DNA from: an uncultured Actinomycetes bacterium
GTDB lineage: Bacteria; Actinomycetota; Thermoleophilia; UBA2241
Reading direction: 5' to 3'
Assembly (NCBI GenBank): GCA_963725665.1
Contig: CAVRZA010000001.1
Location: 480,001-544,000 of the forward strand
DNA length: 64,000 nucleotides
A model generated the notes under the pieces. That model saw only the letters and a program-made list of their open reading frames with translations, searched no databases and had not been told where the DNA came from. The position numbers and the translations under genes are program-made. The first letter of the stretch is position 1; each line of letters opens with the position of its first letter. Shown piece after piece: positions 15,541 through 51,207 of this stretch.

Positions 15541-15543
15541 CAC

Positions 15544-19049: not shown

Positions 19050-19157
19050 CTACTTCGCCGCGAACACCAGCCCCGCGATCAGCGCCGTCGCCTCCTCCTG
19101 CATCGCCGGGATGGCGTGCGAGTAGGTGTACAAGGTGATGGAGACGGTGGCGTGGCC
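19050..19157 (-). repeat. Integrase 3'-end remnant (tail 5)
   Basis: GHATVSITLYTYSHAIPAMQEEATALIAGLVFAAK*. Confidence 0.9.
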
Positions 19158-19338
19158 GGGGCGAATCGCCACGAGCATTAGCTGTGATGGCGTCCTCGCC
19201 AGCCTGTCGGACGCCGGATTGGGCTGCATCACGCGGCGGCCCCCTAAGGGGCCGCAGATGTCACAACAAATGAGAATCCCATGAGGCCGTTCATGCGCTT
19301 GCCGTCACCGCGGAGCGCGCGGCCCGAAAAGCCCAACC

Positions 19339-19370
19339 CGGGGCGAGCCGCCGTGAGGCGGCTCGCCCCG
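19339..19370 (-). terminator. GC-rich hairpin downstream of 19389-19760
   Basis: GGGGCGAGCCGCC-GTGA-GGCGGCTCGCCCC perfect 13-bp stem. Confidence 0.6.
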
Positions 19371-19388
19371 CGCCCTGACCCGCCGGTG

Positions 19389-19760
19389 TCACGCCGCCTT
19401 GCGGCGAGTCTCCGGGGATTCGCTGGCCCCTGACAGCGGAGTCGGCGTCGGTGCCGACCCGGCCGAGGTCTCGACCAGCCTGCGGCGCTGCCAGACCACC
19501 AGCCCGAGCGCCAAAGCCGCAACGGCGGCAATGGCCACACCGAGGCCGAGGTAGGTGGGCCAGCTGGTCGTCGTGGTGGCCGTGGGTGCGATAGCCGGAA
19601 CGCGCTGCGCATGCACGCCGAGTTGATGAGCCTGCGCCTGAGCCGCCGCCTGCGGCGCAGGTTTAGCCTGCGCGCTCGTCACAACGACTGCGAGGAGCGT
19701 CACGGCCAAGACTACCAAGCCGGCAAACACTGCGGGTAGTTTCTGGTACTTCGTTGCCAT
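19389..19760 (-). CDS. Hypothetical exported/membrane protein
   Basis: GGAGGGGG RBS; N-terminal signal-like helix, C-terminal TM helix plus QRRR. Confidence 0.65.
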   Translation of the reverse strand: MATKYQKLPAVFAGLVVLAVTLLAVVVTSAQAKPAPQAAAQAQAHQLGVHAQRVPAIAPTATTTTSWPTYLGLGVAIAAVAALALGLVVWQRRRLVETSAGSAPTPTPLSGASESPETRRKAA

Positions 19761-19932
19761 TGCTCCCCCTCCCGGCTTGGCGGCTTCGTCTCGAAGCCGC
19801 GCTCACCTTTATCGTTGGGGCGGTGGACGTGCGACCGCTTCCGCACAGAATGGCCCTCATGAGCAGAGGATAAACCTATCACCGTAGGGACAACTGTGTA
19901 TTCAAGACAGGGACTGAGGAGGTGTCGCGCGC

Positions 19933-20376
19933 ATGGCTCGTCTGGTGGGAATCAATCACGTAGCGCTCGAAGTCGCAGACGTCGGCGAGGCCCTTGACTT
20001 ATACGGGCGCTTCTTCTCCTTCGATTTGCGTGGCAGAGTCGGCTCGAGGGCGGCCTTCATCGACATGGGCGACCAGTTCCTCGCGCTCATGGCGGGACGT
20101 AGGCAGCCCCCCGACGCGGTAAGGCACGTCGGGCTGGTGGTCGACGATAAGGAAGCTGTGCGCCGGCAGCTCAGGCAGCAGGGCATAAGCGTGCAGGAAT
20201 CCGGATCTCTGGACTTCACAGATCCCTGGGGTAACCACGTGCAGGTCGTCGACTACCGCGAGATCCAGTTCACTAAGGCTCCTTCCGTCCTGCGCGGCAT
20301 GGGGCTCGGGGAGCTTGGCAAGACCGAGCAGGCGCTCGCTGAGCTGCGCAAGAAGGGACTCGCCGGTGAGCCGTAG
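19933..20376 (+). CDS. VOC/glyoxalase family protein (copy 1)
   Basis: GINHVALEV...RHVGLVVDD...DPWGNHVQV; GAGGAGG RBS. Confidence 0.9.
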   Translation: MARLVGINHVALEVADVGEALDLYGRFFSFDLRGRVGSRAAFIDMGDQFLALMAGRRQPPDAVRHVGLVVDDKEAVRRQLRQQGISVQESGSLDFTDPWGNHVQVVDYREIQFTKAPSVLRGMGLGELGKTEQALAELRKKGLAGEP

Positions 20377-20421
20377 CGGGACTGAGGAGTCCGTGGCGGA
20401 AGCGAACCTCTCAGGGCTCAC

Positions 20422-20705
20422 CTACTTGACTGCGAAGACCAGCCCCGCGATCAGCGCCGCCGCCTCCTCCTGCAGCGCCGGGATGGCGTGCGGGTAGGTG
20501 TCGAGCGTGATCGAGACGGTGTCGTGCCCGAGGTGCTCCGAGACCACCGTGGGGTGGATGCCGGCCGGCGGGGGAGGGTGGCGTGCGTGTGGCGCAGGTC
20601 GTGCAGTTGGATGCTCGGCGCCGCCTTCTTGACTGCCTGCCCGAAGAAACGACTCACGACCTCGGGGTGCGGGGCCCGGCCGTCCTCGTGTGGAAAGATC
20701 ACCTC
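20422..20705 (-). repeat. Integrase 3'-end remnant (tail 6, divergent)
   Basis: EDGRAPHPEVVSRFFGQAVKKA..IQLHDLRHTHAT...GLVFAVK*. Confidence 0.88.
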
Positions 20706-20792
20706 CTTCTTCGACGGCAGCGCTGCAACGGCATCAGCGGGTCGACGGCGGGGGAAGCTTGCCGTACAAGATGCGATCAGAGGAGGACAAGC

Positions 20793-21146
20793 ATGCCACT
20801 GCAGAAGAAGAGTTTCGCTTCGCCGGATGAGGTGCGGCCCATGGCCGACAAGGGTCGCGTCGAGATCCTGCGGGTCGGCGATGGCGTCGTTGGCAAGGCT
20901 ACGTTCGAGCCCGGTTGGCGCTGGTCGCAGCACGTCAAGCCGATCGCCGGCACCGACAGCTGCCAAGCGGCCCATCTCGGCTATGTCCTCTCCGGGCACC
21001 AGAAGGTAGTCATGGACGATGGCAGCGAACTCGAGTTCGGCCCCGGCGACGTGGTCGCCATCCCTCCCGGCCACGACGGCTGGGTCCTCGGTGACGAGCC
21101 CTGCGTCCTGCTGGACTTCGCCGGCATGGAACACTACGCGAAGTAG
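20793..21146 (+). CDS. Cupin domain protein
   Basis: FEPGWRWSQHVKP...CQAAHLGYVLSG...IPPGHDGWV. Confidence 0.9.
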   Translation: MPLQKKSFASPDEVRPMADKGRVEILRVGDGVVGKATFEPGWRWSQHVKPIAGTDSCQAAHLGYVLSGHQKVVMDDGSELEFGPGDVVAIPPGHDGWVLGDEPCVLLDFAGMEHYAK

Positions 21147-21149
21147 GGG

Positions 21150-21509
21150 ATGGCGGAGACCAGCGCGAGCAAGCGCGGATCCAGTCCGCCGGTAAGGATG
21201 AGCAGGCGGCTGAGCAACCACTACGTCTACAGGTTGATCCCGCCGCGGCCAACGTTCCACGAGGACATGAACGACGAGGAGCGGGCCATCATGACCCGCC
21301 ACGCCGCCTACTGGAGCGAGCTGATCGAACAGGGAGGTGTGATCGTCTACGGTCCCGTGGTCGACAGCAGCGGCTCCTGGGGCCTGGGGGTCATCCACGC
21401 CGAGAGCGAGGACGAGGCCCGCGCGTTGCCGGAGGCGGACCCTGCGGTCTCGTCCGGCATGGCGACCTTCGAGATCGGCACGATGCTGGTGGCGGTCCTG
21501 CCGGGCTAG
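21150..21509 (+). CDS. YciI family protein
   Basis: LIPPRPTF...MTRHAAYW...YGPV...DPAV; true start may be ATG 21198. Confidence 0.8.
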   Translation: MAETSASKRGSSPPVRMSRRLSNHYVYRLIPPRPTFHEDMNDEERAIMTRHAAYWSELIEQGGVIVYGPVVDSSGSWGLGVIHAESEDEARALPEADPAVSSGMATFEIGTMLVAVLPG

Positions 21510-21524
21510 CGCAGTCAGGATCGT

Positions 21525-21705
21525 CTAGTCAGTGAACACCAGCCCCGCGATCAGCGCCGCCTCCTCCTGCATGGCCGGGATGGCGTGCGAGTAGGTGTCG
21601 AGCGTGATCGAGACGGTGGCGTGGCTGAGGCGTTCGGAAACGGCCTTTGGGTGGATTGCAGCCTGGGGGGCCAGAGCGGTATGCGTGTGCCTGAGGTCGT
21701 GCAGG
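21525..21705 (-). repeat. Integrase 3'-end remnant (tail 7)
   Basis: LHDLRHTH...PKAVSERLSHATVSITLDTYSHAIPAMQEEAALIAGLVFTD*. Confidence 0.88.
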
Positions 21706-21877
21706 CTACCTGTACTGCTCGCCCTCGCGAAGCCTCCAGGCGCTCCTGGCCGATTCCCTCCGCGGCGGGGAGGCGTTACCCTGCCGGGCCGCTTGGAAAC
21801 GGACTCGACGGCTGGGGTCCGGGGTAGAGATCTTACTTAGCGGCGCAGTGGCGCCGGGGAGCCAGGGCAAGGAGTGC

Positions 21878-22237
21878 ATGATGGCCGACAGCGTGATCTT
21901 CATCGGCTGGTCAAACGCCGTTCGCGGCCGCGAGCAGGCCTCGGAGAAGGTCTTCAGGGAGGCGATGGAGTACTGGGGCCGGCTGCAGGCGGCGGGGGAG
22001 ATCGAAAGCGTCGATGCAGTGCTGCTGGATGCCCACGGCGGCGATCTCGGCGGCTTCTTCCTCCTCAAGGGCGAGCGCGAGAAGCTGGCGCGCGTCCAGG
22101 CGAGCGCGGAGATGGAGAAGCTGATGATTCGGGCGAACGTGATCGTCGACGATCTCGGCGCCGTGGGCGGCGTCACCGGCGAGGGCGTGATGCGGCGGCT
22201 GGCCATGTTCCTGGAGGCCTCGGGCAGCCTTCTCTAG
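21878..22237 (+). CDS. Hypothetical protein (dimeric alpha-beta barrel-like)
   Basis: AAGGAG RBS; FIGWSNAVRGRE...LDAHGGDLGGFFLLKG. Confidence 0.75.
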   Translation: MMADSVIFIGWSNAVRGREQASEKVFREAMEYWGRLQAAGEIESVDAVLLDAHGGDLGGFFLLKGEREKLARVQASAEMEKLMIRANVIVDDLGAVGGVTGEGVMRRLAMFLEASGSLL

Positions 22238-22396
22238 AGGCGGACGGACGTGGGGCGCTGACGCGCTCCACGCCCTATCTTTCTCGTAGCGCCCCGGAGG
22301 ACAGTAGTCCCCACGGGGTGAGCGGCGTGGGCAGCCATGACGTGGACTCGCTCATGAAGTGGCGTGGCCCCCGACGCTGCCTGTCACGACAGGTGT

Positions 22397-22497
22397 CTAC
22401 GCCTCAGCGAACACCAGCCCCGCAATCAGCGCCGCCGCCTCCTCCTGCAGCGCCGGGATGGCGTGCCAGTAGGTGTCGAGCGTGATCGAGACGGTGC
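22397..22497 (-). repeat. Integrase 3'-end remnant (tail 8)
   Basis: TVSITLDTYWHAIPALQEEAAALIAGLVFAEA*. Confidence 0.9.
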
Positions 22498-22547
22498 CGC
22501 CGGGTACATCCCAAAGGGACGCAAGACCGATCAGGAAGGGACCCTCA

Positions 22548-22973
22548 ATGTCACAGCCAAACAAGGAGACTCTGCGACGCATCCCGCTCGAGGCCATCAA
22601 GGAAGGCAAAGTGGAGATCGTCGATGAGGTGCTCGCCGCCGATTTCGTCGAGCACGGCTCGCTGCCGCCCGGGCTGCCCCAGGGCCGCGAGGGGCTCAAG
22701 GCCCTGATCGTGGGGCTGAGGGCGGCGTTCCCCGACTTTCGCTACAGCGTGCTCCACGAGATTGCCGAGGACGACATGGTCGTGCAGCACATGCGCGCCT
22801 CGGGCACGATGAAGGGCGAGTACGCCGGCATGAAGCCGACCGGCAAGAGCGCCACCTGGGACGAGGTTCACATCGTGCGCATGAAGGACGGCAAGGCCGT
22901 CGAGCACTGGGCGGTGGTAGACCAGCTCGGCATGCTTCAACAGCTCGGCTTGGCGCCCGCTGCTCCCGCCTGA
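22548..22973 (+). CDS. Ester cyclase (SnoaL-like polyketide cyclase)
   Basis: AAFPDF...IAEDDMV...GTMKGEYAGMKPTGK...DGKAVEHW..D. Confidence 0.9.
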   Translation: MSQPNKETLRRIPLEAIKEGKVEIVDEVLAADFVEHGSLPPGLPQGREGLKALIVGLRAAFPDFRYSVLHEIAEDDMVVQHMRASGTMKGEYAGMKPTGKSATWDEVHIVRMKDGKAVEHWAVVDQLGMLQQLGLAPAAPA

Positions 22974-23196
22974 TTAAGCAGACGATCGTCCTCTCAGGGC
23001 GCGAACGAGCCACCTACTGTGACTCGTTCGCACCTCTCTTGCGCTAGACGCCTCGTGCTCGCGTGGCCGCACGGCTCGAGGTGTGATTCAAGAGTCTCGA
23101 GGCGCGGCGCCTACCCTACGGCATCAACCTCTGCACAGCGGGTACCGTGATACTTACGGACGCTGCTAGCGTGAAGACGTCACCGAGGAGGGCACC

Positions 23197-23361
23197 ATGG
23201 CACTCTACGAGTTCACCTGCAAGAAGTGCGGCACCGAGTTCGAGGTCACCTGCCACATGGACGAGCGCGACGCCCAAGCGCTCTGCCCCAAATGCGGCAG
23301 CCACAAGGTGCACCAGAAGCTCAGCGCCGCGTTCTCCTCGCCGCGGCCACCCAAATACTGA
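23197..23361 (+). CDS. FmdB-family zinc-ribbon protein (below ORF-track cutoff)
   Basis: GAGGAGG RBS; MALYEFTCKKCGTEFE...CPKCGS. Confidence 0.85.
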   Translation: MALYEFTCKKCGTEFEVTCHMDERDAQALCPKCGSHKVHQKLSAAFSSPRPPKY

Positions 23362-23422
23362 AGCCCAGCTGCGGCGCTCAGCCTGCCAGGACCAACATGG
23401 GCTGCGCTCGCAGAGGACGGCC

Positions 23423-23530
23423 CTACTGCCCCGCGAACACCAGCCCGGCGATCAGCGCCGCCGCCTCCTCCTGCAGCGCCGGGATGGCGTGCGAGTAGGC
23501 GTCGAGGGTGATTGCCACGGTGGCGCGTCC
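23423..23530 (-). repeat. Integrase 3'-end remnant (tail 9)
   Basis: GRATVAITLDAYSHAIPALQEEAAALIAGLVFAGQ*. Confidence 0.9.
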
Positions 23531-23637
23531 GGGGGGAATCGCCACGGGCATCCCCTGTGGCGGCGTCTTCACCGGCCTGTCGGACGCCGGATTGGGGGAG
23601 AACACTGCAAGACGGGGACTGAGGAGGTGTCGCGCGT

Positions 23638-23750
23638 ATAGCTCGTCTGGTGGGAATCAATCACGTGGCGCTCGAAGTCGCAGACGTCGGCGAGGCCCTT
23701 GACTTATACGGGCGCTTCTTCTCCTTCGATTTGCGTGGCAGAGTCGGCTC
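23638..23750 (+). pseudogene. Truncated VOC gene (5' part only, ATG changed to ATA)
   Basis: Near-identical to 19933-20046, then switches to att-region sequence. Confidence 0.85.
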
Positions 23751-23751
23751 G

Positions 23752-23990
23752 CCCAGAATGCTTGAGCACGGCCCAGCACCGAGCCCGCCCGGAACTTTGG
23801 ACCGTGCAGCACCTTTGCGCACGCGGCAGTACGCCCCATCACGCCTTCGGCATGTTTCCTAAACCTGGTGTCGTAGGTTCGATTCCTGCCGGGGGCACCA
23901 GCTTTCTCCTGCATATGCCGATTTCACCTGCCTTCCGAAGTGCCCCTTCCTTGCCGAATCGGCAAGATTGCCGACATTTTGCCGACGAGG
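23752..23990 (+). mobile_element. Second attP-like junction with tRNA-Arg(CCT) 3' half (23854-23900)
   Basis: Flanks homologous to 15578-15812; TGCCGAC pair at 23969/23980. Confidence 0.8.
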
Positions 23991-24133
23991 CGCGGTGACA
24001 TGGTTAACTGCGCGAGCACACAGGCGGGCATCGTCTGCTGATCCGCAAGGTGCGCACGTCAGCGCAACAGCTTCGACAAGCCGATTCGCCGCCCGGCGTC
24101 GCCCTGCTCGGACATCTGAGCGGCCAGGGCGCC

Positions 24134-27100
24134 CTAGCCGCGGCGCCTCCACCACCGACGGCGCTCCTCAGAGGCAACTGGCCCGCGATCGGGTTCTTCT
24201 CTCGACTCGATTGGCCTGGCTACTGGATGCGGATCCAGCGACTCACCCATCGGCTCCAGGATGTACACGGTTCCACTTGTGTCCCCACAGCAGATGCGCG
24301 TCCCTTGCGGACTGTAATCGCAGCAAGACACAAATCCGAGGCACGGCAACATCGCAACACACTCCATGTTCTGGGCATCCCAGAGCGTGAGGGTGCTGCT
24401 GTCCCATGAGCCAGAGGCGATGCGGCTGCCGTCCGGGGAGTAGGCGACAGCGGTCACCGAGCCCGTATGGCCCCTGAAGGTGGCGAGCTCCACGCCATTG
24501 GCGGCGTCCCAGACCTTGAGCGTCCCGTCGCCTGAGCCGGAGACGATGCGGGTGCCGTCCGGGGAGTAGGCCACGGCCCGCACCGAGTCATCGTGGCCGC
24601 TGAAGGTGGCGAGCTCCGCGCCGCTGGCGGCGTCCCAGACCCTGAGTGTCCCGTCACTTGAGCCGGAGACGATCCGGGTGCCGTCCGGGCAGTAGGCAAC
24701 CGTGTTCACCCCCTCCGTGTGCCCGCTGAAGGTGGCGAGCTCCGCGCCGCTGGCGGCGTCCCAGACTCTGAGCGTGTGGTCGTCTGAGCCGGAGGCGATG
24801 CGGCTGCCGTCCGGAGAGTACGCGACGGCGAATACATAGCCGGTGTGGCCGGTGAGGGTGAGAAGCTCCGCGCCGCTGGCGGCATCCCAGACCTTGGCTG
24901 TGTTGTCGTACGCGCAGCCATCGACGATGCGGCTGCCGTCCGGGGAGTAGGCGACGGCCTCCACATAGCCTGTGCCGCTGAGGGTGAGGAGCTCCGCGCC
25001 GCTGACGGCGTCCCACACCTTGAGCGTGCAGTCGCGTGAACCGGAGACGATTCGGCTGCCGTCCCGGGAGCAGGCGACGGCCCGCACCCAGTCCGTGTGA
25101 CCGCTGAGGGCGGTGAGCTCCGCATCGCCGGCGGGGTCCCAGACCTTAAGGGTGCCGTCGCCTGAGCCGGAGACGATGCGGGTCCCGTCCGGGGAGAAGG
25201 CGACGGCAGACACCGAGTACGTGTGCCCGCTGAGGGTGGCGAGCTCCGCGCCATTGGCCGCGTCCCAGACCCTGACGGTGTAGTCGTCTGAGCCAGAGGC
25301 GATGCAGGTGCCGTCCGGGGAGTAAGCCACGGTGAGCACCGGTTTCGTGTGCCCGCTGAGGGTGGCGAGCTCCGCGCCGCTGACGGCGTCCCAGATCTTG
25401 AGGGTGTTGTCCCAGGAGCCGGAGGCGATGCGGCTGCCGTCCGGGGAGTAGGCGACGGCGGTCACGTGATCCGTGTGGCCGCTGAGCGCGGCGAGCTCCG
25501 TGCCGGCGGCGGCGTCCCAGACCTTAAGGGTGCTGTCGCCTGAGGCGGAGGCGATGCGGCTGCCGTCCGGGGAGTAGGCGACCGCCTGAACGTGGCTAGT
25601 GTGGCCAGTGAGGGCAGCGAGCTCCGCGCCGGTGTCAGCGTGCCACACTTTCAGAGTGTTGTCGCCTGAGCCGGAGACGATGCGGTTGCCGTCCGGGGAG
25701 TAGGCGACGGCATACACCGAGTCCGTGTGGCCGCTGAGGGTGAGAAGCTCCGCGCCGCTGACGGCGTCCCAGATCTTGAGAGTGTTGTCGCCTGAGCCGG
25801 AGACGATGCGGCTGCCGTCCGGGGAGTAGGCGACGGCCTGAACGTGGCCAGTGTGGCCAGTGAGGGTGGCGAGCTCCGCGCCGCTGACGGCGTCCCACAC
25901 CTTAAGCGTGTTGTCCTCTGAGCCGGAGAGGAAGCGGGTGCCTGAGCCGGAGACGATGCGGCTGCCGTCCGGGGAGTAGGCGACCGCCCCCACCAAGCCC
26001 GTGTGGCCGGCGAGGACGCGTATCAGCGCCCCCGACTCGCGAAGTCGAGTCAGCAAGTGCAGCCACAGTCCGGCGCCGGGCTTGCTGCGTTCCTCGAGCT
26101 CGGGTGCAAGAACCCCGGAGACGACCCCCCCGTTCTCCGGCCCGTCGACCCACTGCAGCCGGTTGTACATCTGCTGCCAGAGCAGATCGGGGCCCGGGGT
26201 CAGGTTGTGCGCCTCCCGACCGAGTATCTTCGCGAACGCCTCGAGCACGAGGCGCTGATCGGACCGTGCCGTCATTGGGTCGCCCACGAGCGCCTGCGCG
26301 GCCGGGAAGGCTGCCAGCGCCCGGTCGTAGTCGTCGATCAGCGCCAGCACGCCGTTGTAGACGCCGACGTCCTCGCCCTCGGCGCCGGCGCTCGTCACGA
26401 CGGCGACGCGCTTCGCTTTCTGTTCGAGGTAGGTGAAGTCGGTGAGCGTGGCAGAGAGGTCATCCCAGCGCTCGGCCCGGGTGAGGTGGTAGGGCAGCTC
26501 GGCGAGCGCGTGCGCGCTGCCTTTCCACTCGCGCGCGCCCGCGTCCTTGCCGCGTGCCAGCCGTTGCATCACGTTCGCGAGCACGTCGTGCAATTGCGCT
26601 GACCGTCCGTCGACGTAGCGCTTCTGTGCCGCGTCGGCAAGCTCCTTGTGGAAGAACGACAGCAGCGACGCCCCTTCGGAGGCCCGCGGACTCAGGTACG
26701 GCGCCAGATCGAAGTGCAGCCGCGACCACACGACGACCGGCAGCTGCCGCAGCGGCATCTCCCATTCGGCGCCGGCCCTGAACTCCGCCCACGTCTCCTC
26801 GTCGGCGGCGAGCGCATCGAGGAGCTCGTCCTCGGAGAGGCCCAGCCGCTCGTAGGCGCAGGCGAGGAAGCCGAGCGCGTGGCCCACCAGCTCGCCCCCG
26901 TGCTCGGTTTCGAGCCGCTTGTAGAGGTCGCCGATGATGGCGGGCTCGTCTGCGCCGATCCGGACCTCCTCGAGTGCGGAGGGCCACAGACGCGCCTCCT
27001 CGAAGGCGAGGCGCAGGTAGAGCGGTGAGCCGCGGGCGCCAAAGCGTCCGAGGATTCCCTCGCGTTGCGGGGGCCTGAGCGTGCGGCCGCTATTCTGTAG

Positions 27101-42632: not shown

Positions 42633-42645
42633 GGAAGGACGCGAG

Positions 42646-43821
42646 ATGACGAGAGCCGTCGTCACCGGCAACCAGGCCGCCGGCCACGCGCTCGTCGCGG
42701 CCGGCGAAGCCAACCGCGCCGCCCGCGGCTGCGGCGGTGGCTGCTACCCCATCACGCCTCAGACCGAGATCATCGAGAACGTCATGGCGGCGCGCTTCAG
42801 CAAAGGGAGCTTCGTCGCCGTGGAATCGGAGCACAGCGCCATGGCGGTCTGCATCGGCGCCTCGCTCGCGGGAGCGCGCTCCTTCACCGCCAGCTCCTCC
42901 AACGGACTCCTGTACATGACGGAGAACGTCTTCGCTGCCGGACTGGCACGCCTGCCCATCGTCATGGTGGTGTCCAATCGCACGATCGGTCCGCCGTGGA
43001 ACATCTGGGCCGACCACGGCGACAGCCTCGCCCTGCGCGACGCACCCTGGCTGCAGCTCTACTGCGACTCGCATCAGGACCTGGTGGACACCACCCTGCT
43101 CGCCTTTCGCGTCGCCGAGGACCCGCGCGTGCTGCTCCCCGTGATGGTGACCCAGGACGGCTTCCTCCTCTCGCACACCAGCATGGTGTGCGACCTCCCG
43201 TCGCAGGATCTCGTGGACGACTACCTGCCCCCGCTCGACCTGGCGCTGCGGGCGCGGGCCGACCACCCGCGCACCTACGGACAGATGATGAGCCCGCGCG
43301 AGACGCAGCGGCACCGCGAGGAGATCCAGGCGGCGATGGAAAGGGTGCCCGAGGTGCTCGACGAGGCCGGCGCGGAGTTCGCGCGTGTCTTCGGCCGCCG
43401 GCCGCGCGGCGCCTTTGAGGCGCAGCACACTGCCGACGCCGACACGGTACTCATCGCCTCGGGCACCACGGTGAGCACGCTGCGCAGCGTCGTGGAGGCG
43501 CGCCGCAGCGCCGGCGAGAAGGTCGGGCTGGTGCAGCTCAAGCTCTTCCGCCCGTTCCTCAGGGACGAGCTCTCGCGCGCGATCGGCAGCGCACGGCGCG
43601 TGGCCGTGCTCGATCGCGACCACTCGCCCGGGTCGGGCGGCGTCATGTGGAATGAGATCGCGACCAGCTTGAGGGAACGACCCGACGTGCTGCTGCAGGG
43701 CTACATCGTCGGGCTCGGCGGCGGCGAAGTCGACCCGCCGCTCATCGAGCTTGTCCTCGACGACCTCGCCGGCCGCGAACGCGCAGACGCGCCGGTCTTC
43801 TTCCCACAGGAGGTGACCTGA
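42646..43821 (+). CDS. porA: Pyruvate/2-oxoacid:ferredoxin oxidoreductase alpha subunit
   Basis: YPITPQTEI, ESEHSAM, TASSSNGL, NRTIGPPWNIW.DH.D, LFRPF. Confidence 0.88.
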   Translation: MTRAVVTGNQAAGHALVAAGEANRAARGCGGGCYPITPQTEIIENVMAARFSKGSFVAVESEHSAMAVCIGASLAGARSFTASSSNGLLYMTENVFAAGLARLPIVMVVSNRTIGPPWNIWADHGDSLALRDAPWLQLYCDSHQDLVDTTLLAFRVAEDPRVLLPVMVTQDGFLLSHTSMVCDLPSQDLVDDYLPPLDLALRARADHPRTYGQMMSPRETQRHREEIQAAMERVPEVLDEAGAEFARVFGRRPRGAFEAQHTADADTVLIASGTTVSTLRSVVEARRSAGEKVGLVQLKLFRPFLRDELSRAIGSARRVAVLDRDHSPGSGGVMWNEIATSLRERPDVLLQGYIVGLGGGEVDPPLIELVLDDLAGRERADAPVFFPQEVT

Positions 43822-43823
43822 CC

Positions 43824-44729
43824 ATGGCGACCTCCCTGCCAGCGCCCGGCACGGCGCCCCGCCCTCACATCCTTCGCCCGGACAGCACCAACTGCCCCGG
43901 CTGCGCGATGTCGGTGGGCCTGCAGTGGCTCAACGAGGCGCTCGGCGCGGCGACGCCGACGCTGGTCATCCCGGCGTGCTGTGCCGCCGTCACTCCCGGG
44001 GCCTTTCCCGCCAGCGCCTACAGCGTTCCGGCCATTGAAACCACCTTCGCCAGCGCCGCCGCCGTGGCGACGGGCATCGCCCGCGTGCGACAGCTGAATG
44101 GGGAGGCCGACCCCACGATCTGCTGGGCCGGCGACGGCGGCACCTATGACATCGGCCTGGCGACGCTCTCCGCCGCCGCCGAGCGCAACGAAGATGTCCT
44201 CTACATCTGCTACGACAACGAGATCTACGGCAACACCGGGGGCCAGCGCAGCGGCGCCACGCAGCGCGGCGCCAAGACGACCACCACCCCGCGCGGCAAG
44301 GCCGAGACCAAGAAGGACATCATGGCGATCATGGCCGCGCATCGCGTCCCTTACGCAGCGACGCTGTCGCTCGCCCACCGTGACGACTTTCTGCGCAAGA
44401 TGCGTTTGGCTCTGGGCATGCCGGGCTTCCGCTTCCTGCTCATGCTGTCGCCCTGCCCGGCGGGCTGGAAGTCGGATCCCGCCGAGAGCGTCGAGCTCGT
44501 CCGCCTCGCGGTGGCCTGTGGCCTCTTCCCGCTGTACGAGGTATTCGACGGCGAGCGCTACCGCATCAACGCGCGCGCCGACGACACGCCGCTCGACGAC
44601 TACTTGGGCCGACAGGGGCGCTTCCGCTCTGTGGCGCCGGCCCTGGACGATCTGCGCGCCCAAATGGAACGCGATTGGGCGCGCCTCGATGGGCTGGCGC
44701 GGGCATTCCCGGCGGAGGCCCCCGCGTAG
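43824..44729 (+). CDS. porB: Pyruvate/2-oxoacid:ferredoxin oxidoreductase beta subunit
   Basis: CPGC; TPP motif GDGGTYDIG...DNEIYGNTGGQ; SPCP.GW. Confidence 0.88.
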   Translation: MATSLPAPGTAPRPHILRPDSTNCPGCAMSVGLQWLNEALGAATPTLVIPACCAAVTPGAFPASAYSVPAIETTFASAAAVATGIARVRQLNGEADPTICWAGDGGTYDIGLATLSAAAERNEDVLYICYDNEIYGNTGGQRSGATQRGAKTTTTPRGKAETKKDIMAIMAAHRVPYAATLSLAHRDDFLRKMRLALGMPGFRFLLMLSPCPAGWKSDPAESVELVRLAVACGLFPLYEVFDGERYRINARADDTPLDDYLGRQGRFRSVAPALDDLRAQMERDWARLDGLARAFPAEAPA

Positions 44730-44733
44730 CAGC

Positions 44734-45297
44734 ATGGCGCGCTCCCGTCGCTCGAGCCGGCGGCGCTCGTCGGCACGCCAGCACGTCACTCTGGTCCTCG
44801 TGATGGCCGTGATCGCGACCCTGGCGCTCGTCGCCTGCGGCGGCTCGAGCACCACGGCAGCGACCTCGCAGAGCGCGACCACTTCGCTGGCCGCGGGTAA
44901 GACCATCTTCCAAACGGGCGTCCTTGACGGACAGCCGATTCCGCGAACGGGCAGCAGCGGCGGTGGCATGATGAACGGCGGCGGGATGGGCGGTAGCGGA
45001 GCGAGCGGCGGCATGATGCGCGCCGGCTGCGCGACCTGCCACGGCTCCGACGGCCACGGACGCACCACGCCGGCGTTCACTGCGCCGAACATCACCTACA
45101 GCAACCTGACCGACCCGCAGGGCATGCTGCAGCCGGACGGTACGCGTGGCCCTACGTACACGGATGCCACGCTGCGCACAGCCGTCACGCAGGGCCTCGA
45201 CCCGCAGGGCAGCCGCCTGGAGTCGCCCATGCCGCAATGGCAGCTCAGCGGCCCTCAATGGGCTGACCTGCTCGCCTACCTCAAAACGCTGCGCTGA
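44734..45297 (+). CDS. Lipoprotein c-type cytochrome
   Basis: Lipobox LVAC; CATCH heme motif; distal MP; GGGMM linker. Confidence 0.85.
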   Translation: MARSRRSSRRRSSARQHVTLVLVMAVIATLALVACGGSSTTAATSQSATTSLAAGKTIFQTGVLDGQPIPRTGSSGGGMMNGGGMGGSGASGGMMRAGCATCHGSDGHGRTTPAFTAPNITYSNLTDPQGMLQPDGTRGPTYTDATLRTAVTQGLDPQGSRLESPMPQWQLSGPQWADLLAYLKTLR

Positions 45298-45463
45298 AGA
45301 CAGGGCGTCCCCGGCACCGGGTAAGAAGCCCCCATGGTCGCCGCGAGCCTTCCCGCCGAGATCGGCCGCGCACTCAGCATGGCCTTCGCCGTGTTCTGGG
45401 AGATCCTGCCCATCCCTCCCGCCCGGGCACAGTGCTATTGTCGTATGAAGAAGGCGGCCGCTG

Positions 45464-46300
45464 GGCCATGTCCGTCAAGGTGGTGTACGAAGGAGCTCGC
45501 TCCTCCTCGCCTGATCCTCAGCCGACGGCCGCTACGAGCGCCGGCATGACCTCCTCCTCGTTTGCGTCATCGTCGCTCGCCTCGAGCTCGGCCGGGGGCC
45601 TCGTCAGCGCGGCCAGCGAGTCGGCGCTCATGTAGCGCCGCGCTACGGCCCACTCGTCGTCTTGTTCGGCGAGCACCATGCCGACGAGGCGCACGACGGC
45701 CTCGCGGCCGGGGAAGATGCCGACCACGTCGCTTCTGCGGCGGATCTCGCGGTTGAGACGCTCCTGGGGGTTGTTGGACCAGATCTGCCGCCAGTGGGCC
45801 AGCGGGAAGGCGGCGAAGGCGGTGATGTCGGGCGCTGCCCGCTCGAGCAGCTCGGCGGCGGCCGGGAAGCGCCTGGCGAGCTGCTCGGACACGCGCTCCA
45901 GCTGGGCCGCGACCTCCGCGGCGGAGGGCTGCGCGAAGATGGTGCGCACCAGGGTGGCCACGAAGGGCTGGGCGCTGCGCGGCACGCGGGCCAGCAGGTT
46001 GCGCATGAAGTGCGTTCTGCACCTCTGCCAGCTGGCCCCGCTCAGGTGCGCGTCGATCGCCCGCGTGAGGCCGCGGTGATCATCGCTGATGACGAGCTGC
46101 ACCCCGGCCAGGCCGCGGGAGGTGAGGCCGGCCAGGAAGTCGCTCCAGGCGGCCTCGTCCTCGCTTGTGAAGACGTCGAGGCCGAGGATCTCACGCAGGC
46201 CGTCAGCGCTGACCGCCGTCGCGACCACGACGGCGACGCGCACGATACGCCCCTCTTCCCGCGTCTTCATGGCCAGTGCGTCGAGCCACAGGTACTCGAT
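45464..46300 (-). mobile_element. IS256-family transposase remnant (5'-truncated) with right end
   Basis: YLWLDAL, GLREILG, VISDDHRGL, WQRCRTHFMRN, IWSNNPQERLNREIRRRSDVVGIFP. Confidence 0.9.
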
Positions 46301-46450
46301 GTGACTGTCCTCACTCAAGTGAGGTACCTGCCGGACCCCATTCATTGCTCCACTTCTTATGTTAGTCGCAGGGGCGCGACAGGTACCGTATCGCATGAAG
46401 AGTCTGCCAAGCGCGCCTAGACGCGTGGCCCACGACGCCGAGGAGGCACC

Positions 46451-46714
46451 ATGCCGACCGTAATCGGATATCACGATGTCAAGGACAAGGACCACTGGCT
46501 TGCCTCGCCAAAGCGCGAAGAGGTTTTCGGGCCCCTGGGGGTTACCAACATCCGCACGTTCGTCGACCCGGAGAAGCCAACCCGAGTAGCCGTGCTCATG
46601 GACGTTGCTGACATGGACGCCCTCATGGCCGCGATGCAGACCGAAGCGATGGCCGAGGCCATGGCGTACGACGGCGTGCTGCCCGAAACCCTGGTGATCC
46701 TCGTCGAGGCGTAG
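46451..46714 (+). CDS. Hypothetical protein
   Basis: GAGGAGG RBS; 87 aa; ends 47 bp before tail 16. Confidence 0.75.
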   Translation: MPTVIGYHDVKDKDHWLASPKREEVFGPLGVTNIRTFVDPEKPTRVAVLMDVADMDALMAAMQTEAMAEAMAYDGVLPETLVILVEA

Positions 46715-46761
46715 TTCACTTTCTCACTTGGCCAAGAGCCACTTGAACCACCCAGCTCGAG

Positions 46762-46892
46762 CTAGGTGGCGAACACCAGCCCGGCGATCAGCGCCCCCGC
46801 CTCCTCCTGCATCGCCGGGATGGCGTGCGAGTAGGTGTCGAGGGTGATCGAGACGGTGGCATGTCCGAGGCGCTCTGAGACGACCTTGGGAT
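46762..46892 (-). repeat. Integrase 3'-end remnant (tail 16)
   Basis: Same truncation point (GACCTTGGGAT|CGCTGTC) as tail 4. Confidence 0.9.
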
Positions 46893-46988
46893 CGCTGTCA
46901 TGCCCGCTCGGTTACAGCGCCCGCCCGGCAAGGGCGATCCTGAGATCGGTTTGCTCTGATCGCCTCGACCCAAAGGTGGCTCAGCACA

Positions 46989-47303
46989 TCAGCAGTTGTC
47001 TCGCTGCCGGCCTCGCTCCTGAGATGCCGCCAGGCGACAGGTCTCGCAGCAGTAGCGCTTCCTGGGGTTGTCCGTGAAGAAGAGAGAGCCGCAGAGAGGC
47101 GATGCGCAGACAGTCAGGAGCTCTCTCTTTGGATGACGCCGCGGCCGCGTCGCCAAACGTCGCGATTGCTGCGAGCGATGGAGCGCGCAGTAGAGCAGCG
47201 AGTTGTAGATGCTGAGGCGGGCTGAACAACCGGGAGCGGCGCACACGCGTCCGCTGGCGTAGGTCCGGGAAGGCGTTCCGAGAGCCACCACACGATGTCC
47301 CAT
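46989..47303 (-). CDS. Small Cys-rich CGNR-like zinc-finger protein (copy 2)
   Basis: One aa different from 18421-18735. Confidence 0.6.
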   Translation of the reverse strand: MGHRVVALGTPSRTYASGRVCAAPGCSARLSIYNSLLYCALHRSQQSRRLATRPRRHPKRELLTVCASPLCGSLFFTDNPRKRYCCETCRLAASQERGRQRDNC

Positions 47304-47550
47304 GACTGCAAGACCTCCTCGTATCCGTGACCTCTTCGCTTGAAGAGGACGTCCCGAGAACATGGTTCGGCAGGGCGTCGGACCGCCGTGAGCCGGATAG
47401 ACGGATATCCCAGGCGCTTGCGAGCCTCGCTTTCGCTTAGGATCCGGTCACCTCAGGCGGCATGGCAGCTGCGAATGCGGATGAGCGGGTCCTTCAGATG
47501 GCGCGCGCCGAGCCCTAGCCAGACCTGCCCTCTTGTCGCGCCTCGGCCTA

Positions 47551-48003
47551 TCAGGCCATGTAGTGCGGCGGGCCGTAACTGTCGGACTCGTCGCGCTCGA
47601 CGAGCGACTCTCCGCTGCGGTGCAGGTAGCCTTTGCGGACTTCGCCATCGACGATCGCCTTGTGCTCTGCTTTCGAGTGACGGTGATGTCCATGAAGGTC
47701 GGTCTCGATGAACTCCTTGAAGCGGGCCAAGTCGTGCGCCAGCCGCGCACTGGCGAGCTGTTCCTTGGCGCCCACGTCGGGGGCGCCACCGGGTTCGTAG
47801 AGGAACTGCACGCGGACCGTCGTTCTGCCCTCCGCGAGCTGCTCGTAGGCTACGGTCTCGTGCTTGGCCATGATCTCGCAGCTCCAGGCGTCACAGAGCA
47901 GCTTGTAGTTGCCGACGAGGACCCACTCGGTGAAGCGAGCCCACTCCGCGCGGGCTACCTCGGGCGAAACGTCCACGTCCACTGCTTGTTGGATGGAAAC
48001 CAT
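47551..48003 (-). CDS. SRPBCC-like protein
   Basis: SIQQAVDVDV...WARF...DLARFKEFIE; GGAGG RBS. Confidence 0.7.
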   Translation of the reverse strand: MVSIQQAVDVDVSPEVARAEWARFTEWVLVGNYKLLCDAWSCEIMAKHETVAYEQLAEGRTTVRVQFLYEPGGAPDVGAKEQLASARLAHDLARFKEFIETDLHGHHRHSKAEHKAIVDGEVRKGYLHRSGESLVERDESDSYGPPHYMA

Positions 48004-48124
48004 GCCTCCACCTTCCATCCGAGTGCTCCCAACCGGGAGTTGAGAGGGCTATTCCCGAGGCGCAACGGGAGGAATCTGACCGAGCGTTTGAGGGTGCCCC
48101 GCTTCGGTGGACAGTCTCGGGTTT

Positions 48125-48189
48125 GCGTGCGACTAGATGTCGAGCGTGGTCGAGACGGTGGCGTGGCCGAGTCGCTCTGAGACCACGGT
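48125..48189 (-). repeat. Integrase internal remnant (tail 17, lacks terminal hairpin half)
   Basis: VVSERLGHATVSTTLDI*SH. Confidence 0.75.
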
Positions 48190-48309
48190 TCCATGTGAGC
48201 GATTGCGTGCGATGGCCGGGAGTCGTGCGCACCCGATGCGCCCTGGCCGTCTCAGTCCCTCCCAGCCGGCAATCTTCTCCTTGTCCATCAACGCGGGAGG
48301 AGGCAGACC

Positions 48310-49066
48310 ATGTCGCACGTGATCTCACGAGACGGCACGAAGATCGCCTACGAGCAGACCGGTGAGGGCGAGGCGGTTCTGCTGATCGACGGGGCGCTGG
48401 GTTCACGGTCGTTCGGGTTCATGCCGCGACTGGCCGTGATCCTGGCGCCGCACTTCAGCGTCAAGACCTACGATCGTCGTGGCCGGGGCGAAAGTGGCGA
48501 CACGCCGCCCTAAGCCGTCGCCCGCGAGGTCGAAGACATCGAGGCGCTCATCGGGCAAGCCGGAGATGCCGCGTCCCTCTTCGGCATCTCCTCGGGCGCG
48601 GCCCTCGGCCTGGAGGCGGCTCTCGGGCTCGGCGAGAAGGTCAAGTCGGTCGCCATGTACGAGCCGCCTTACAACGCCGAGGACGCGCAACTCTGGAGGG
48701 ACTACGGACGGCGGCTCAGGGAGCTGCTGGCGGCGGGTCGCCGAGGCAGTGCGGTCGCGCTCTTCATGGCGTTCGTCGGTGTTCCGGCCGAGCAGATCGC
48801 GACGATGCGTGAGACGCCCTTGTGGTCGATGCTCGAAGCCGTGGCACCGACGCTTGCCTATGACGAATCCGTTCTGGGGATGGACCGCGCCGTGCCTACC
48901 GCACGGGCGGCGGATCCTGAGGGCGCCGGCGCTCGTGATGAACGGCGGCGAGAGCTACCCGTTCATGCGCGACACGGCAAGAGCCCTGGCGGACAGCATC
49001 CCGGCGGGGCGCTATCACGAGCTCGAAGGCCAGCGTCACGACGTGGCCGTGGAGGCCCTGGCACCC
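48310..49066 (+). pseudogene. Alpha/beta hydrolase, TAA at 48511 and frameshift near 48915
   Basis: SRDGTKIAY, YDRRGRGESGD, GISSGA, YEPP, LEGQRHDV. Confidence 0.85.
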
Positions 49067-49069
49067 GGC

Positions 49070-49385
49070 CGGCCGACTCCGATCCCTACCACGACGCACC
49101 GACGATCATCCTGGTGCTCGCCGATCAGACCAAGGTCACGCCCGTCGAGGACGCAAGCCTCGCCCTGGGCAACATGTTCAACGCCGCCTACTCCCTGGGT
49201 CTGGGCTCCTGTTGGGTGCACCGTGAAAGGCAGATGTTCGCCAGCGACCAAGGCCAGGCGCTGCTCAAGAAGTGGGGCGTGGAGGGTGACTACGTCGTGT
49301 GGGGGCCTGCGTCCTCGGTTACCCCGAGGGCGAACACCCGCAGGCGGCCCCGCGCAAGGACGGTTCTGTGGTGATGGTGAGGTAG
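49070..49385 (+). pseudogene. Nitroreductase C-terminal fragment joined to the hydrolase
   Basis: DPYHDAPTIILVLAD...EDASLALGNMFNAAYSLGLGSCWVHR. Confidence 0.8.
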
Positions 49386-49428
49386 CGTACTCAGCGCTCG
49401 CGCGCGACGATCCTTTTCTAGGCTCGAC

Positions 49429-49686
49429 CTACTTAGCTGCGAAGACCAGTTCGGCGATTCTCGTCGCCGCCTCTTCTTGCATCGCCGGGATGGCGTGCGA
49501 GTGAGTGTCGAGCGGATTGCGACGGTGACGTGCCCGAGGCGCTCGGAGACGACCGTGGGATGTACGCCCGCTTGCAGAGCAAGGGTGGCGTGGGCGTGCC
49601 GCAGGTCATGCGGCCTGATCTGCGGCAGCATCGCCTTCTTCTCTGCCCGTCGGAAGTGGCGCGTGACTGTCTCCGGGTCGAGCGCG
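49429..49686 (-). repeat. Integrase 3'-end remnant (tail 18, divergent allele)
   Basis: ALDPETVTRHFRRAEKKAMLPQIRPHDLRH...QEEAATRIAELVFAAK*. Confidence 0.9.
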
Positions 49687-49736
49687 CTGGTGTTCTTGAC
49701 GGACGCCGCCACACCCTGCGTTTGAGCCCGTTATTA

Positions 49737-50144
49737 TCACATAGCGGCGATGTTGACGATGTTGTCCTCGCTGTCCTTGAACCAGGCTGCCTTGGTGCCC
49801 TCGAACTCGGCGATGCCGTTCACGGTCTTGAGTCCGATCTCGGGCAAGTCATAGTCCTCGAACGTCACACCCTTGGCTCGCAGATCGGCGGCGACCTCAT
49901 CGAACTTGTCGCGGGGTAGGCCGAAACCCAAGGCCGTGCTCTGCGGTGCCGGCATGCCGGGGCGTTCATAGATCATGACCATGGTGCCATCGCCCGCCGT
50001 GAACATGGCCATGCCCTCGCTCGCGGGACCGGGGACGTCGCCCGGCCTGAGGCCCAACACGTCGGTGTAGAACTTCTTGGCGCGACCAAGGTCCTCGGCC
50101 CGCAGCACAGCTGCAGCCGGGTGGTCCCCGAGACTAGCCATCAT
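49737..50144 (-). CDS. VOC/glyoxalase family protein
   Basis: DLGRAKKFYTDVLGL...GVTFEDYD...AWFKDSEDN. Confidence 0.88.
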   Translation of the reverse strand: MMASLGDHPAAAVLRAEDLGRAKKFYTDVLGLRPGDVPGPASEGMAMFTAGDGTMVMIYERPGMPAPQSTALGFGLPRDKFDEVAADLRAKGVTFEDYDLPEIGLKTVNGIAEFEGTKAAWFKDSEDNIVNIAAM

Positions 50145-50328
50145 GCACATCCTCTCTCTCGCCTCATCGGTCACTCCCATGACTTCCCCCGTCCCCGCGT
50201 GGGAAAGCGGATTGTCGTTTGCGCTCGCTCGCGCACGCGGGTGACGCGGGCGTCGCAAGGGGCACAGTGGCGGGCGCACGCAGGACGTTGGTTTCGAGTC
50301 CAAGGGCAGGCGCTCGACGTGCAACCGT

Positions 50329-50437
50329 CTAGTTCCCCGCGAACACCAGCCCCGCGATCAGCGCCGCCGCCTCCTCCTGCATCGCCGGGATGGCGTGCGA
50401 GTAGGTGTCGAGGGTGATCGCGACGGTGGCGTGTCCG
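50329..50437 (-). repeat. Integrase 3'-end remnant (tail 19)
   Basis: GHATVAITLDTYSHAIPAMQEEAAALIAGLVFAGN*. Confidence 0.9.
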
Positions 50438-50543
50438 GGGCGAATCGCCACGGGCATCCCCTGTGATGGCGTCTTCACCGGCCTGTCGGACGCCGGATTG
50501 GGGGAGAACACTGCAAGACAGGGACTGAGGAGGTGTCGCGCGC

Positions 50544-50987
50544 ATGGCTCGTCTGGTGGGAATCAATCACGTAGCGCTCGAAGTCGCAGACGTCGGCGAG
50601 GCCCTTGACTGGTACGGGCGCTTCTTCTCCTTCGATTTGCGTGGCAGAGTCGGCTCGAGGGCGGCCTTCATCGACATGGGCGACCAGTTCCTCGCGCTCA
50701 TGGCGGGACGTACGCAGCCCCCCGACGCGGTAAGGCACGTCGGGCTGGTGGTCGACGATAAGGAAGCTGTGCGACGGCAGCTCAGGCGGGAGGGCATAAG
50801 CGTGCAGGAATCCGGATCTCTGGACTTCACAGATCCCTGGGGTAACCACGTGCAGGTCGTCGACTACCGCGAGATCCAGTTCACGAAGGCCCCGTCGGTG
50901 CTGCGCGGCATGGGGCTCGAGGAGCTTGGCAAGACCGAGCAGGCGCTCGATGAGCTGCGCAAGAAGGGACTCGCCCGTGAGCCATAG
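50544..50987 (+). CDS. VOC/glyoxalase family protein (copy of 19933-20376)
   Basis: 147 aa, 7 aa differences from copy 1. Confidence 0.9.
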   Translation: MARLVGINHVALEVADVGEALDWYGRFFSFDLRGRVGSRAAFIDMGDQFLALMAGRTQPPDAVRHVGLVVDDKEAVRRQLRREGISVQESGSLDFTDPWGNHVQVVDYREIQFTKAPSVLRGMGLEELGKTEQALDELRKKGLAREP

Positions 50988-51030
50988 CGGACTGAGGAGT
51001 CCGTGGCGGAACGAACCTCTCTGGGCTCAC

Positions 51031-51207
51031 CTACTCGCCTGCGAACACCAGCCGCGCGATCAGTGCCGCCGCCTCCTCCTGCATCGCCGGAATGGCGTGC
51101 GAGTAGGTGTCGAGCGTGATCGAGACAGTCGCCGTGTCCGAGACGTTCGCTGACGACCTTCGGGTGAACACCGGATGCAGGGCGAGGGTGGCGTGGGTGT
51201 GGCGTAG
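51031..51207 (-). repeat. Integrase 3'-end remnant (tail 20)
   Basis: LRHTHATLAL...VHPKVVSERLGH...LVFAGE*. Confidence 0.9.

Follow-up and report, generated by a model that had tools for sequence, protein, structure and literature searches.

The stretch of DNA analyzed here, hereafter the window, comprises 64,000 nucleotides (nt) of contig CAVRZA010000001.1 from an uncultured actinomycete of the class Thermoleophilia and contains 21 copies of the 3′ end of a tyrosine integrase gene, all located on the minus strand and interspersed with small accessory genes. The setting is a Thermoleophilia-like genome and, within it, a composite island built by integrases of a tRNA-targeting family, in which a gene of the VOC (glyoxalase-fold) superfamily occurs three times, each time attached to an integrase remnant cut at the same point, and in which sequences have been repeatedly exchanged in or at these remnants, referred to below as tails. 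We lean toward a history in which small elements, each consisting of an integrase gene and cargo, accreted and decayed, after which recombination in the conserved remnants shuffled the modules.

An array of co-oriented integrase remnants

A 32-nt motif derived from the repeat families of the window, which has a G+C content of 64-73%, matches 21 sites on the plus strand and none on the other strand, and a profile search of the window recovered the same 21 positions (T1 to T21, from left to right; Table 1). The minus-strand translation of each tail is the C terminus of a tyrosine integrase, ...LGHATVSITLDTYSHAIPAMQEEAAALIAGLVFAxx-stop, and none of the 21 belongs to an intact integrase gene. Membership in the tyrosine (phage-type) integrases is evident from the matches of the longer tails, T2 and T14, to PF00589 and of the N-terminal part of T14 to PF14659, both domains being present in intact relatives of 415 amino acids (aa), which are ~80% identical and for which a metagenome protein search returned at least 8000 candidates. 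The read-through product of the T14 pseudogene is 83% identical to these intact integrases, and integrases of the tail family are 30-33% identical to those of Bacillus and Paenibacillus phages. A genome scan with the last 50 residues of T14 as the query returned 79 related loci (designated L), none of them identical to the window, the closest of which belong to metagenome-assembled genomes (MAGs) of Thermoleophilia and other Actinomycetota from soil and peat.

Read along the plus strand, the homology between tails sets in abruptly at the stop codon and extends to a different point in each of them; the tails begin at very different points of the gene and all reach its end, with the exception of two fragments in the window. 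One of these, on the minus strand at 48100-48195 (residues ~372-403), lacks the last ~12 residues, or ~55 nt before the stop, and its break falls in a short dyad, CGCC-GGGAT-GGCG, of the HAIPA codons. The other, at 53285-53374 (residues ~378-408), is on the plus strand, the only tail-like piece that is inverted, and lies head-to-head with T21; this pair (53216-53374) is located just downstream of a sigma-70 gene, which in L007 precedes an intact integrase. The stop codon is TAG in 43 of the 60 tails from the window and the related loci and in all six close intact integrases, and TGA in seven more distant intact ones; such use of TAG is unusual for DNA this rich in G+C. T11 (30155-30280, minus strand) contains an expanded GAG/CAG triplet run (QQQQEEEEEE) in the QEEAA codons, and several very short tails of relatives break in the same GAG-GAG-GCG-GCG run, which suggests a slippage or microhomology hotspot. 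Three minus-strand open reading frames (ORFs; 20451-21398, 16440-17297, and 51060-51671) were considered as integrases and dismissed as out-of-frame artefacts of the high G+C content.

Attachment elements and tRNA context

A 270-nt element present twice in the window has as its core an exact 3′ half of a tRNA gene, from the anticodon loop to CCA, with the anticodon CCT as read by eye, and is flanked by two conserved arms, X and Y, which both bear TGCCGAC repeats. The two exact matches to the 3′ end of tRNA-Arg(CCT) in the window compare with zero expected by chance, and conservation of the 270-nt elements extends to 13 stretches in 11 related loci. Neither a tRNA gene nor an Rfam family was detected in the window. 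In 6 of the 36 relatives' loci scanned, an intact tRNA-Arg(CCT) gene converges on the tails 1.3-5.5 kb downstream of them, and more distant integrases are encoded ~100 nt from tRNA-Cys/Gly, tRNA-Met, or tRNA-Gln; the window probably ends before the intact target tRNA. The combination of tRNA 3′ halves, conserved arms, and neighboring intact tRNAs thus identifies a tRNA-targeting integrase family, with the 270-nt elements as its attachment (att) junctions.

Partial att arms are scattered through the related loci. L005 contains, at 13737-14236, the arrangement X-core-X-core-Y, with two units of X arm plus core in tandem followed by a single Y arm, amounting to an "empty" duplication of att. In the window, a minus-strand gene (24134-28639) immediately next to att element 2 encodes a 1501-aa protein with at least 13 WD40 repeats and is built on a 126-nt tandem repeat, the 12 copies of which are 65-82% identical. 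Two resemblances seen by eye were dropped: one, between the VOC linker and the X arm, found no confirmation, and the other, between the tails and the tRNA-Arg core, amounts to a shared CCAGCC and a few bases.

Three copies of a tail-bounded VOC unit

Alignment of regions 19000-20520, 23375-23800, and 50280-51130, combined with a self-BLAST of the window, bears out the first-pass annotation of this DNA in that three tails, with stops (CTA on the plus strand) at 19050, 23423, and 50329, are truncated at one common point and lead into one common linker, followed by a VOC gene that is complete at 19933 and 50544 and truncated at 23638. These tails lose integrase homology ~115-125 nt from the stop (integrase residues ~375-381), and the linker columns GAATCGCCACG ... 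GGACGCCGGATTGG are invariant across the three copies. Identity amounts to 90.8% between 19050-19223 and 50329-50502, 86.0% between 19046-19223 and 23419-23596, and 94.8% between 23423-23751 and 50329-50657; the BLAST E-values, from 1e-54 to 0, exclude chance likeness. Mosaic divergence is apparent within the unit: between T5 and T18, each taken with its linker, 16 of 173 nt differ, compared with 15 of 444 nt for their VOC genes, and between T5 and T9, again with the linkers, 24 of 173 nt differ, compared with 4 of 144 nt for the corresponding part of the VOC gene.

The differences between the two full VOC ORFs (19933-20376 and 50544-50987, 147 aa each) comprise seven synonymous and eight nonsynonymous changes. 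Both ORFs match the Pfam family Glyoxalase (PF00903; 31.0 and 36.2 bits, with a cut-off of 20.6) and hence belong to the VOC superfamily; at least 7996 homologs were found at E<=1e-20 (8000 candidates scored), frequently under the source name lactoylglutathione lyase, and none at E<=1e-5 in the 79 related loci. Identity as a fosfomycin-resistance thiol transferase (FosA, FosB, etc.) was considered and rejected, with the best NCBIfam match at 28 bits and the cut-off at 280. In copy 2, ATA is found where ATG stood, ~38 codons are kept, and homology ends at ~23751, the gene having been cut by an ordinary deletion into an att Y arm. The insertion of ~680 bp in the linker of copy 1 (~19225-19903), reported in the first-pass annotation, is confirmed by the alignment as a block that only this copy has, and its ORF (19389-19760) has no match in Pfam or NCBIfam.

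The edges of the unit can be compared on both sides. To the left of the stop codon of each tail, nothing is common to the three copies, and among the seven bases beside the stop, two differ in each pair. To the right, copies 1 and 3 are alike through ...GGGCTCACCTACT, in agreement with the earlier claim that similarity extends to the stop of the next tail; the divergence that was supposed to follow is less abrupt, with the BLAST match running on to 20597/51207 (93% over 696 nt). This extension represents family-level background only. The next tails, T6 and T19, are 89% identical over the first 75 nt and 77% over the next 100 nt, and each is 92% and 81-83% identical, respectively, to the unrelated T14, so T6 and T19 are not orthologous. 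The left breakpoint falls somewhere from the stop codon to a few tens of nt into the tail, and the right one somewhere from the VOC stop to ~+110 in the next tail. Given that the VOC unit is tail-bounded on both sides, that its left neighbors differ at the stop, and that its right tails are not orthologous, the exchanges occurred at or just inside the tails, which upholds the earlier proposal as far as the involvement of the tails is concerned; its crossover within ~30 bp of the stop codon is resolved no finer than from the stop to ~+35-+110 nt, because unrelated tails are already 85-92% alike there.

A second duplication, consisting of T4 or T16 and an adjacent block, P, provides the best-resolved pair. 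T4 and T16 are ~99% identical from ~35 nt inside the tail on, for ~650 nt, and about a quarter of the positions differ in the stop-proximal ~30 nt, which puts the left breakpoint ~28-35 nt inside the tail. The two copies of block P (18205-18891 and 46772-47459) are 98.3% identical, and the right edge of the block does not coincide with a tail. In both regions, P is found upstream of the VOC gene, in the same order and orientation, with a P-to-VOC interval of 160 nt in one region and 2.9 kb in the other, without similarity between them. An automatic search for mosaic tail pairs rediscovered the truncation points and nothing more. Because the tails hold identical runs long enough for either process, homologous and site-specific recombination are inseparable here. 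A gene for a transposase of the IS256/Mutator family (PF00872; 45518-46495, minus strand) adjoins T16.

Related loci

Tails recur in arrays in other genomes as well: 19 of the 36 loci with a DNA-level tail hold two to seven of them, always on one strand, and 58 of the 64 integrase-homologous chains in the related loci are 3′-terminal, the shortest tails still retaining the last 34-40 nt. The order in relatives is integrase, then tails with cargo, then an intact tRNA. In L005, L002, L050, and L012, an intact or long open integrase comes first, followed by short tails with cargo and then att; the L050 island, delimited by two att cores, contains only the integrase, cargo, and two tails, and in L002 (AAA_25, methylase) and L011 (HTH_17), element genes are located upstream of intact integrases. 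The cargo of relatives consists of small enzymes and regulators (aldo-keto reductase, RibD_C, DUF1801, OsmC, GNAT, and ADH), mostly convergent with the integrase, and that of the window is similar, including SnoaL, VOC, cupin, YCII, and others.

Stretches of 86-87% identity, including the sigma-factor gene, are common to the window and L007, L014, and L008; in L007, this gene is followed by an intact integrase, and the window has remnants there. High-identity sharing of cassettes among the loci is limited to two inter-genome pairs of at least 250 nt at >=88% identity. In three cross-genome comparisons (T9 with L003, T20 with L007, and T3 with L039), the junction between the stop and the downstream cargo is kept, and the truncation point differs. 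What these comparisons link stably is a tail and the cargo on its other side, downstream of the stop, which agrees better with remnants of integrase-plus-cargo elements than with the mobile unit of the first-pass annotation. In L010, an integrase fragment breaks off immediately next to the outer half of an X arm, a configuration that marks a single deletion across the att junction of two tandem elements. A plus-strand ORF (51327-51746) with a match to the C2H2 zinc finger (PF00096, 33.7 bits), here in bacterial DNA, converges on an integrase tail, and the same gene is found downstream of the intact integrase in L007 (~2830-3290), at 82% nucleotide identity.

Possible readings of the tails: scars of decayed elements or dedicated recombination sites

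The history that we lean toward would have started with integrative elements, each carrying an integrase and one or a few accessory genes converging on it, that accumulated at a tRNA gene, which in most of the window would be tRNA-Arg(CCU). Integration of these elements next to each other, which we partly observe and partly infer, would have been followed by deletions that took the att junction and the 5′ part of the neighboring integrase gene. The accessory genes would have stayed, so that all that would survive of each integrase is a 3′ stump adjoining the 3′ end of the cargo gene it came with. One such deletion would have joined the upstream region of the VOC gene to a stump cut at ~residue 375-381, and the product would then have been copied within the island. 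Because the stumps are the only sequence common to otherwise unrelated modules, with ~85-92% identity over the last 75 nt and long identical runs, later exchanges would fall inside them and would place the VOC unit among different neighbors, with similarity starting and stopping at the integrase stop codon. These exchanges most likely represent homologous recombination or gene conversion, and action of the integrase itself is possible; the kind of recombination, like the order of events, is what we infer from the present arrangement. The substitution pattern agrees with such a past: 58-63% of the divergence of the fragments from the nearest intact gene falls at codon position 3, compared with 64-68% among intact genes, and the remnants were therefore coding not long ago. 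The 3′-terminal bias of the remnants is also expected, since deletions must spare the convergent cargo gene abutting the stop. The partial att arms in relatives, the L010 junction, the deletion that cut VOC copy 2, and the stop-cargo junctions kept across genomes are further signs of decay, and the lack of orthology between T6 and T19, the mosaic T4/T16 pair, and the mosaic divergence of the VOC copies are signs of exchange in tails.

Several features of the window and its relatives weigh against this history. The 21 tails of the window are accompanied by only two tRNA-Arg att cores and one weak tRNA-Cys-like one, and the related loci contain, by our count, ~74 tails and ~25 cores, or ~3:1, whereas simple tandem accretion predicts one core per element, so that nearly every junction must have been deleted. 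No remnants of element "body" genes (replication, excision) are found between the window tails, and no remnants of the X or Y arm above noise are found beside the window truncation points, ~15 of 21 of which, on our reading, lie within the last 200 nt of the 1.25-kb gene. Cargo genes such as VOC and SnoaL are located 0-45 nt from an integrase stop, and in the window, by our count, 19 cargo genes converge on the tails and 8 run with them. In L005, L002, L050, and L012, the intact integrase gene is far from att and the tRNA, with short stumps between, an order that insertion into the integrase's own 3′ end would also give.

Such insertion is the essence of an integron-like capture, in which the last 35-75 nt of the integrase gene would be the recombination site itself. 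A circular molecule with cargo and a partial integrase 3′ end would insert into the resident 3′ end, restore that end, and push the old tail downstream, a process that may be likened to that of tRNA-targeting islands carrying a replacement 3′ half; the VOC cassette would have moved in this manner three times, with the integrase supplied in trans. We consider this unlikely, albeit with a real chance of being correct. Besides the difficulties of tandem accretion listed above, namely the integrase-stump-att order, the excess of tails over tRNA-type cores, the lack of arm remnants and body genes, and the skew of truncation points, it would account for the co-orientation of all tails, their sharp common edge at the stop and the presence of 3′-terminal fragments only, for truncation points that are constant within a cassette type (the three VOC copies; T4/T16) and variable between types, and for the shortness of the tails and the tight fit of cargo against their stops. 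The 34-40 nt kept by the shortest tails, the T4/T16 breakpoint, and the preponderance of TAG stops fit it as well. Conversely, no base beyond the stop codon is conserved in the 60 tails, which makes a two-armed core at the stop unlikely, and the tails have no clear dyad symmetry by eye and no consistent single-strand DNA fold, only one of six strands from three tails having a z-score below -2 (+0.43, +0.19, -1.33, -2.17, +0.37, and -0.03) and no structure being common to them. Synonymous sites in the last 25 codons of six intact genes are not clearly more conserved than elsewhere (0.69 vs. 0.61, with windows elsewhere reaching 0.79), and fragment conservation rises gradually, from 0.75-0.80 to 0.90, without a sharp step marking a crossover. 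The coding-type substitutions in the fragments, the existence of another, tRNA-based att site for this integrase family, the cross-genome linkage of tails with downstream cargo at differing truncation points, and the signature in L010 of deletion rather than insertion all argue in the same direction. Thus, of the earlier view of a mobile unit of tail plus cargo, the tail-bounded arrangement stands, and movement of the unit by a site-specific crossover finds no support in bases past the stop, folding, or synonymous constraint. The fuller proposal, that the last 35-75 nt form a dedicated docking site of an integron-like platform riding tRNA-targeting mini-elements of Thermoleophilia and related soil Actinomycetota, with the VOC gene as a trans-mobilized cassette, appears quite doubtful, and equally so its corollary that cassettes would stack between the integrase and its tRNA att site. 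An inverted repeat of 8-12 bp, from the Tyr codon region to the stop region, was seen in T14 and T19 and is not general; an apparently stronger decay upstream of the His codon in ungapped comparison is inflated by indels and was not relied on.

Alternatively, block P and the VOC module could have been duplicated together within the island, or have arrived on two related elements, and subsequently been edited by indels, in which case the tails would be incidental spacers. The first-pass annotation had named identity extending into neighboring cargo as the mark of an ordinary segmental duplication, and such identity is present in part: block P, at 98.3%, accompanies the VOC module in the same order and orientation in both regions, so part of the VOC pattern may reflect a larger, later-edited duplication. 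The position of the right edge of P away from any tail, the 680-bp insertion in copy 1, and the plain deletion in copy 2 are also in keeping with this scenario. As an account of the whole, it is nonetheless improbable: the two P-VOC intervals differ in length and have no similarity, on either side, the surroundings of the VOC unit switch exactly at tails, with T6 and T19 not orthologous, copy 2 is in a third, unrelated context, and the divergence is mosaic, with 1.7% in P, 9.2% in T5 plus linker, and 3.4% in VOC.

Comparison with known systems

The closest parallel may be the tycheposon islands of Prochlorococcus, where tRNA-targeting elements are reported to accrete in tandem at tRNA genes, with fragmented integrases, and to decay into islands (bioRxiv 10.1101/2020.12.28.424599). 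By analogy, the window resembles the tycheposons, as described there, in its tyrosine recombinase, partial tRNA copies as att repeats, and apparent repeated integration at one tRNA, with older elements pushed into the island and small metabolic genes as cargo. The window differs in that its dominant repeat is the integrase 3′ remnant (21 copies) rather than the partial tRNA (2-3 copies), that its remnants all face one way, ~1 kb apart, and are each paired with a cargo gene converging on them, and that its lineage is Thermoleophilia-like Actinomycetota.

With integrons, the window shares a series of small accessory genes (such as VOC, SnoaL, cupin, YCII, and GNAT), most of which look promoterless, each followed by a short conserved element in one orientation, and its relatives share an intact tyrosine recombinase gene at one end. 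However, the integrase is not IntI (43.3 bits to TIGR02249, with a cut-off of 265, and 26 bits to NF011946, with a cut-off of 435), the repeated element is a piece of integrase coding sequence without an attC-like fold, and the cargo genes run toward the integrase, not away from an adjacent promoter. Integrons insert cassettes site-specifically next to the integrase; in the arrays described here, such insertion would be putative, the order of integrase, tails, and att in L005, L002, L050, and L012 bearing on it only indirectly.

An attachment site inside the integrase gene itself has precedents. In the Myxococcus phage Mx8, the attachment site lies within its own integrase gene, intP. SSV-type archaeal integrases are likewise reported to have the attachment site in their own gene (PMC7253208, PMC8371274). 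As in the idea considered for the window, the integrase gene sequence itself can serve as the crossover site in these systems, with integration changing or splitting the gene. There the site is paired with a host tRNA gene, which leaves the integrase split or with a new C terminus; in the window, by contrast, the partner of the putative in-gene site would be another integrase 3′ end, with the frame restored. In the ICEs (integrative and conjugative elements) and IMEs (integrative and mobilizable elements) of streptococci, cis-mobilizable elements are nonautonomous, att-bounded modules that ride with an intact neighbor or are moved by its integrase, and composite elements arise by site-specific accretion and internal deletion. 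The bounding repeats of those elements are true att sites, whereas most of the window modules are bounded by integrase remnants without a tRNA-type att. No description of cassette arrays built on integrase 3′ ends was found in the literature searched.

Feature coordinates and other repeats

The positions of the features discussed above are listed in Table 1. Elsewhere in the window, a 506-bp direct repeat (37536-38039 and 56203-56708), 99% identical and 18.7 kb apart, gave no Pfam match for the three ORFs tested. At 8776-15317, the plus strand encodes two very large secreted-type repeat proteins, a DUF5122 beta-propeller and an M10 peptidase with TIG/Big_13, both with internal 144-156-nt repeats; the first of the two genes is 87% DNA-identical to a gene of L014.

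Table 1. Integrase tails, VOC units, block P, and att elements of the window
Feature	Position	Strand	Evidence or remarks
Span of the 21 co-oriented integrase tails	2854..53284	-	Motif, profile, translation, alignment
Stops/ends of T1 to T11	2854, 3847, 16314, 18195, 19050, 20422, 21525, 22397, 23423, 28739, ~30155	-	
Stops/ends of T12 to T21	~30527, 31855, 33249, 36592, 46762, 49429, 50329, 51031, ~51833, 53216	-	
att element 1	15544..15814	+	Y arm 15544-15677, tRNA-Arg(CCT) 3′ half 15678-15723, X arm 15726-15814
T4 with block P, duplicated at 46762-47459	18195..18891	-	Self-BLAST
T5, left edge of VOC copy 1	19050..19175	-	3′ remnant, residues ~375-415; stop TAG 19050-19052
Linker of the three copies	19176..19224	.	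Invariant alignment columns; GAATCGCCACG...GGACGCCGGATTGGG spans tail break and linker
Block of ~680 bp, copy 1 only	19225..19903	-	ORF 19389-19760, 123 aa, hydrophobic N- and C-terminal stretches by eye
VOC/glyoxalase-fold gene, copy 1	19933..20376	+	147 aa; PF00903
T6, right edge of copy 1	20422..20699	-	Residues ~323-415, frame broken
T9, left edge of copy 2	23423..23530	-	Truncation point as in T5 and T18
VOC stump, copy 2	23638..23751	+	ATA for ATG, ~38 codons, fused to att Y arm
att element 2	23725..23991	+	Y arm, tRNA-Arg(CCT) 3′ half 23855-23900, X arm with TGCCGAC repeats
T14, near-full-length integrase pseudogene (stop 33249)	33249..34475	-	Residues 8-415; in-frame TAG at 34241-34239 and 33710-33708
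T16 with block P, second copy	46762..47459	-	Self-BLAST
T18 (tail 19 of the first-pass annotation), left edge of copy 3	50329..50451	-	
VOC gene, copy 3	50544..50987	+	147 aa
T19, right edge of copy 3	51031..51207	-	Frameshifted
Weak third att-like element	60229..60349	+	Core E=0.036 and X arm E=0.39; 3′ half tRNA-Cys(GCA)-like as judged by eye

Implications

Soil and peat metagenomes are very rich in members of both families, integrase and VOC (at least 8000 candidates each), and many Thermoleophilia MAGs contain arrays in which integrase stumps of one orientation alternate with small accessory genes. For genome annotation, the consequence is the same whichever reading holds: many short "integrase" pseudogenes are to be expected in such islands and should not be counted as elements. 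Should the stumps be scars and nothing more, the window clearly illustrates the conversion of mobile elements, in tRNA-linked islands, into fixed arrays of accessory genes, in which the conserved scars then drive the shuffling of modules. If they are real recombination sites, they would represent a second way of capturing cassettes, independent of integrons, within a phylum that has received little study and is largely uncultured.

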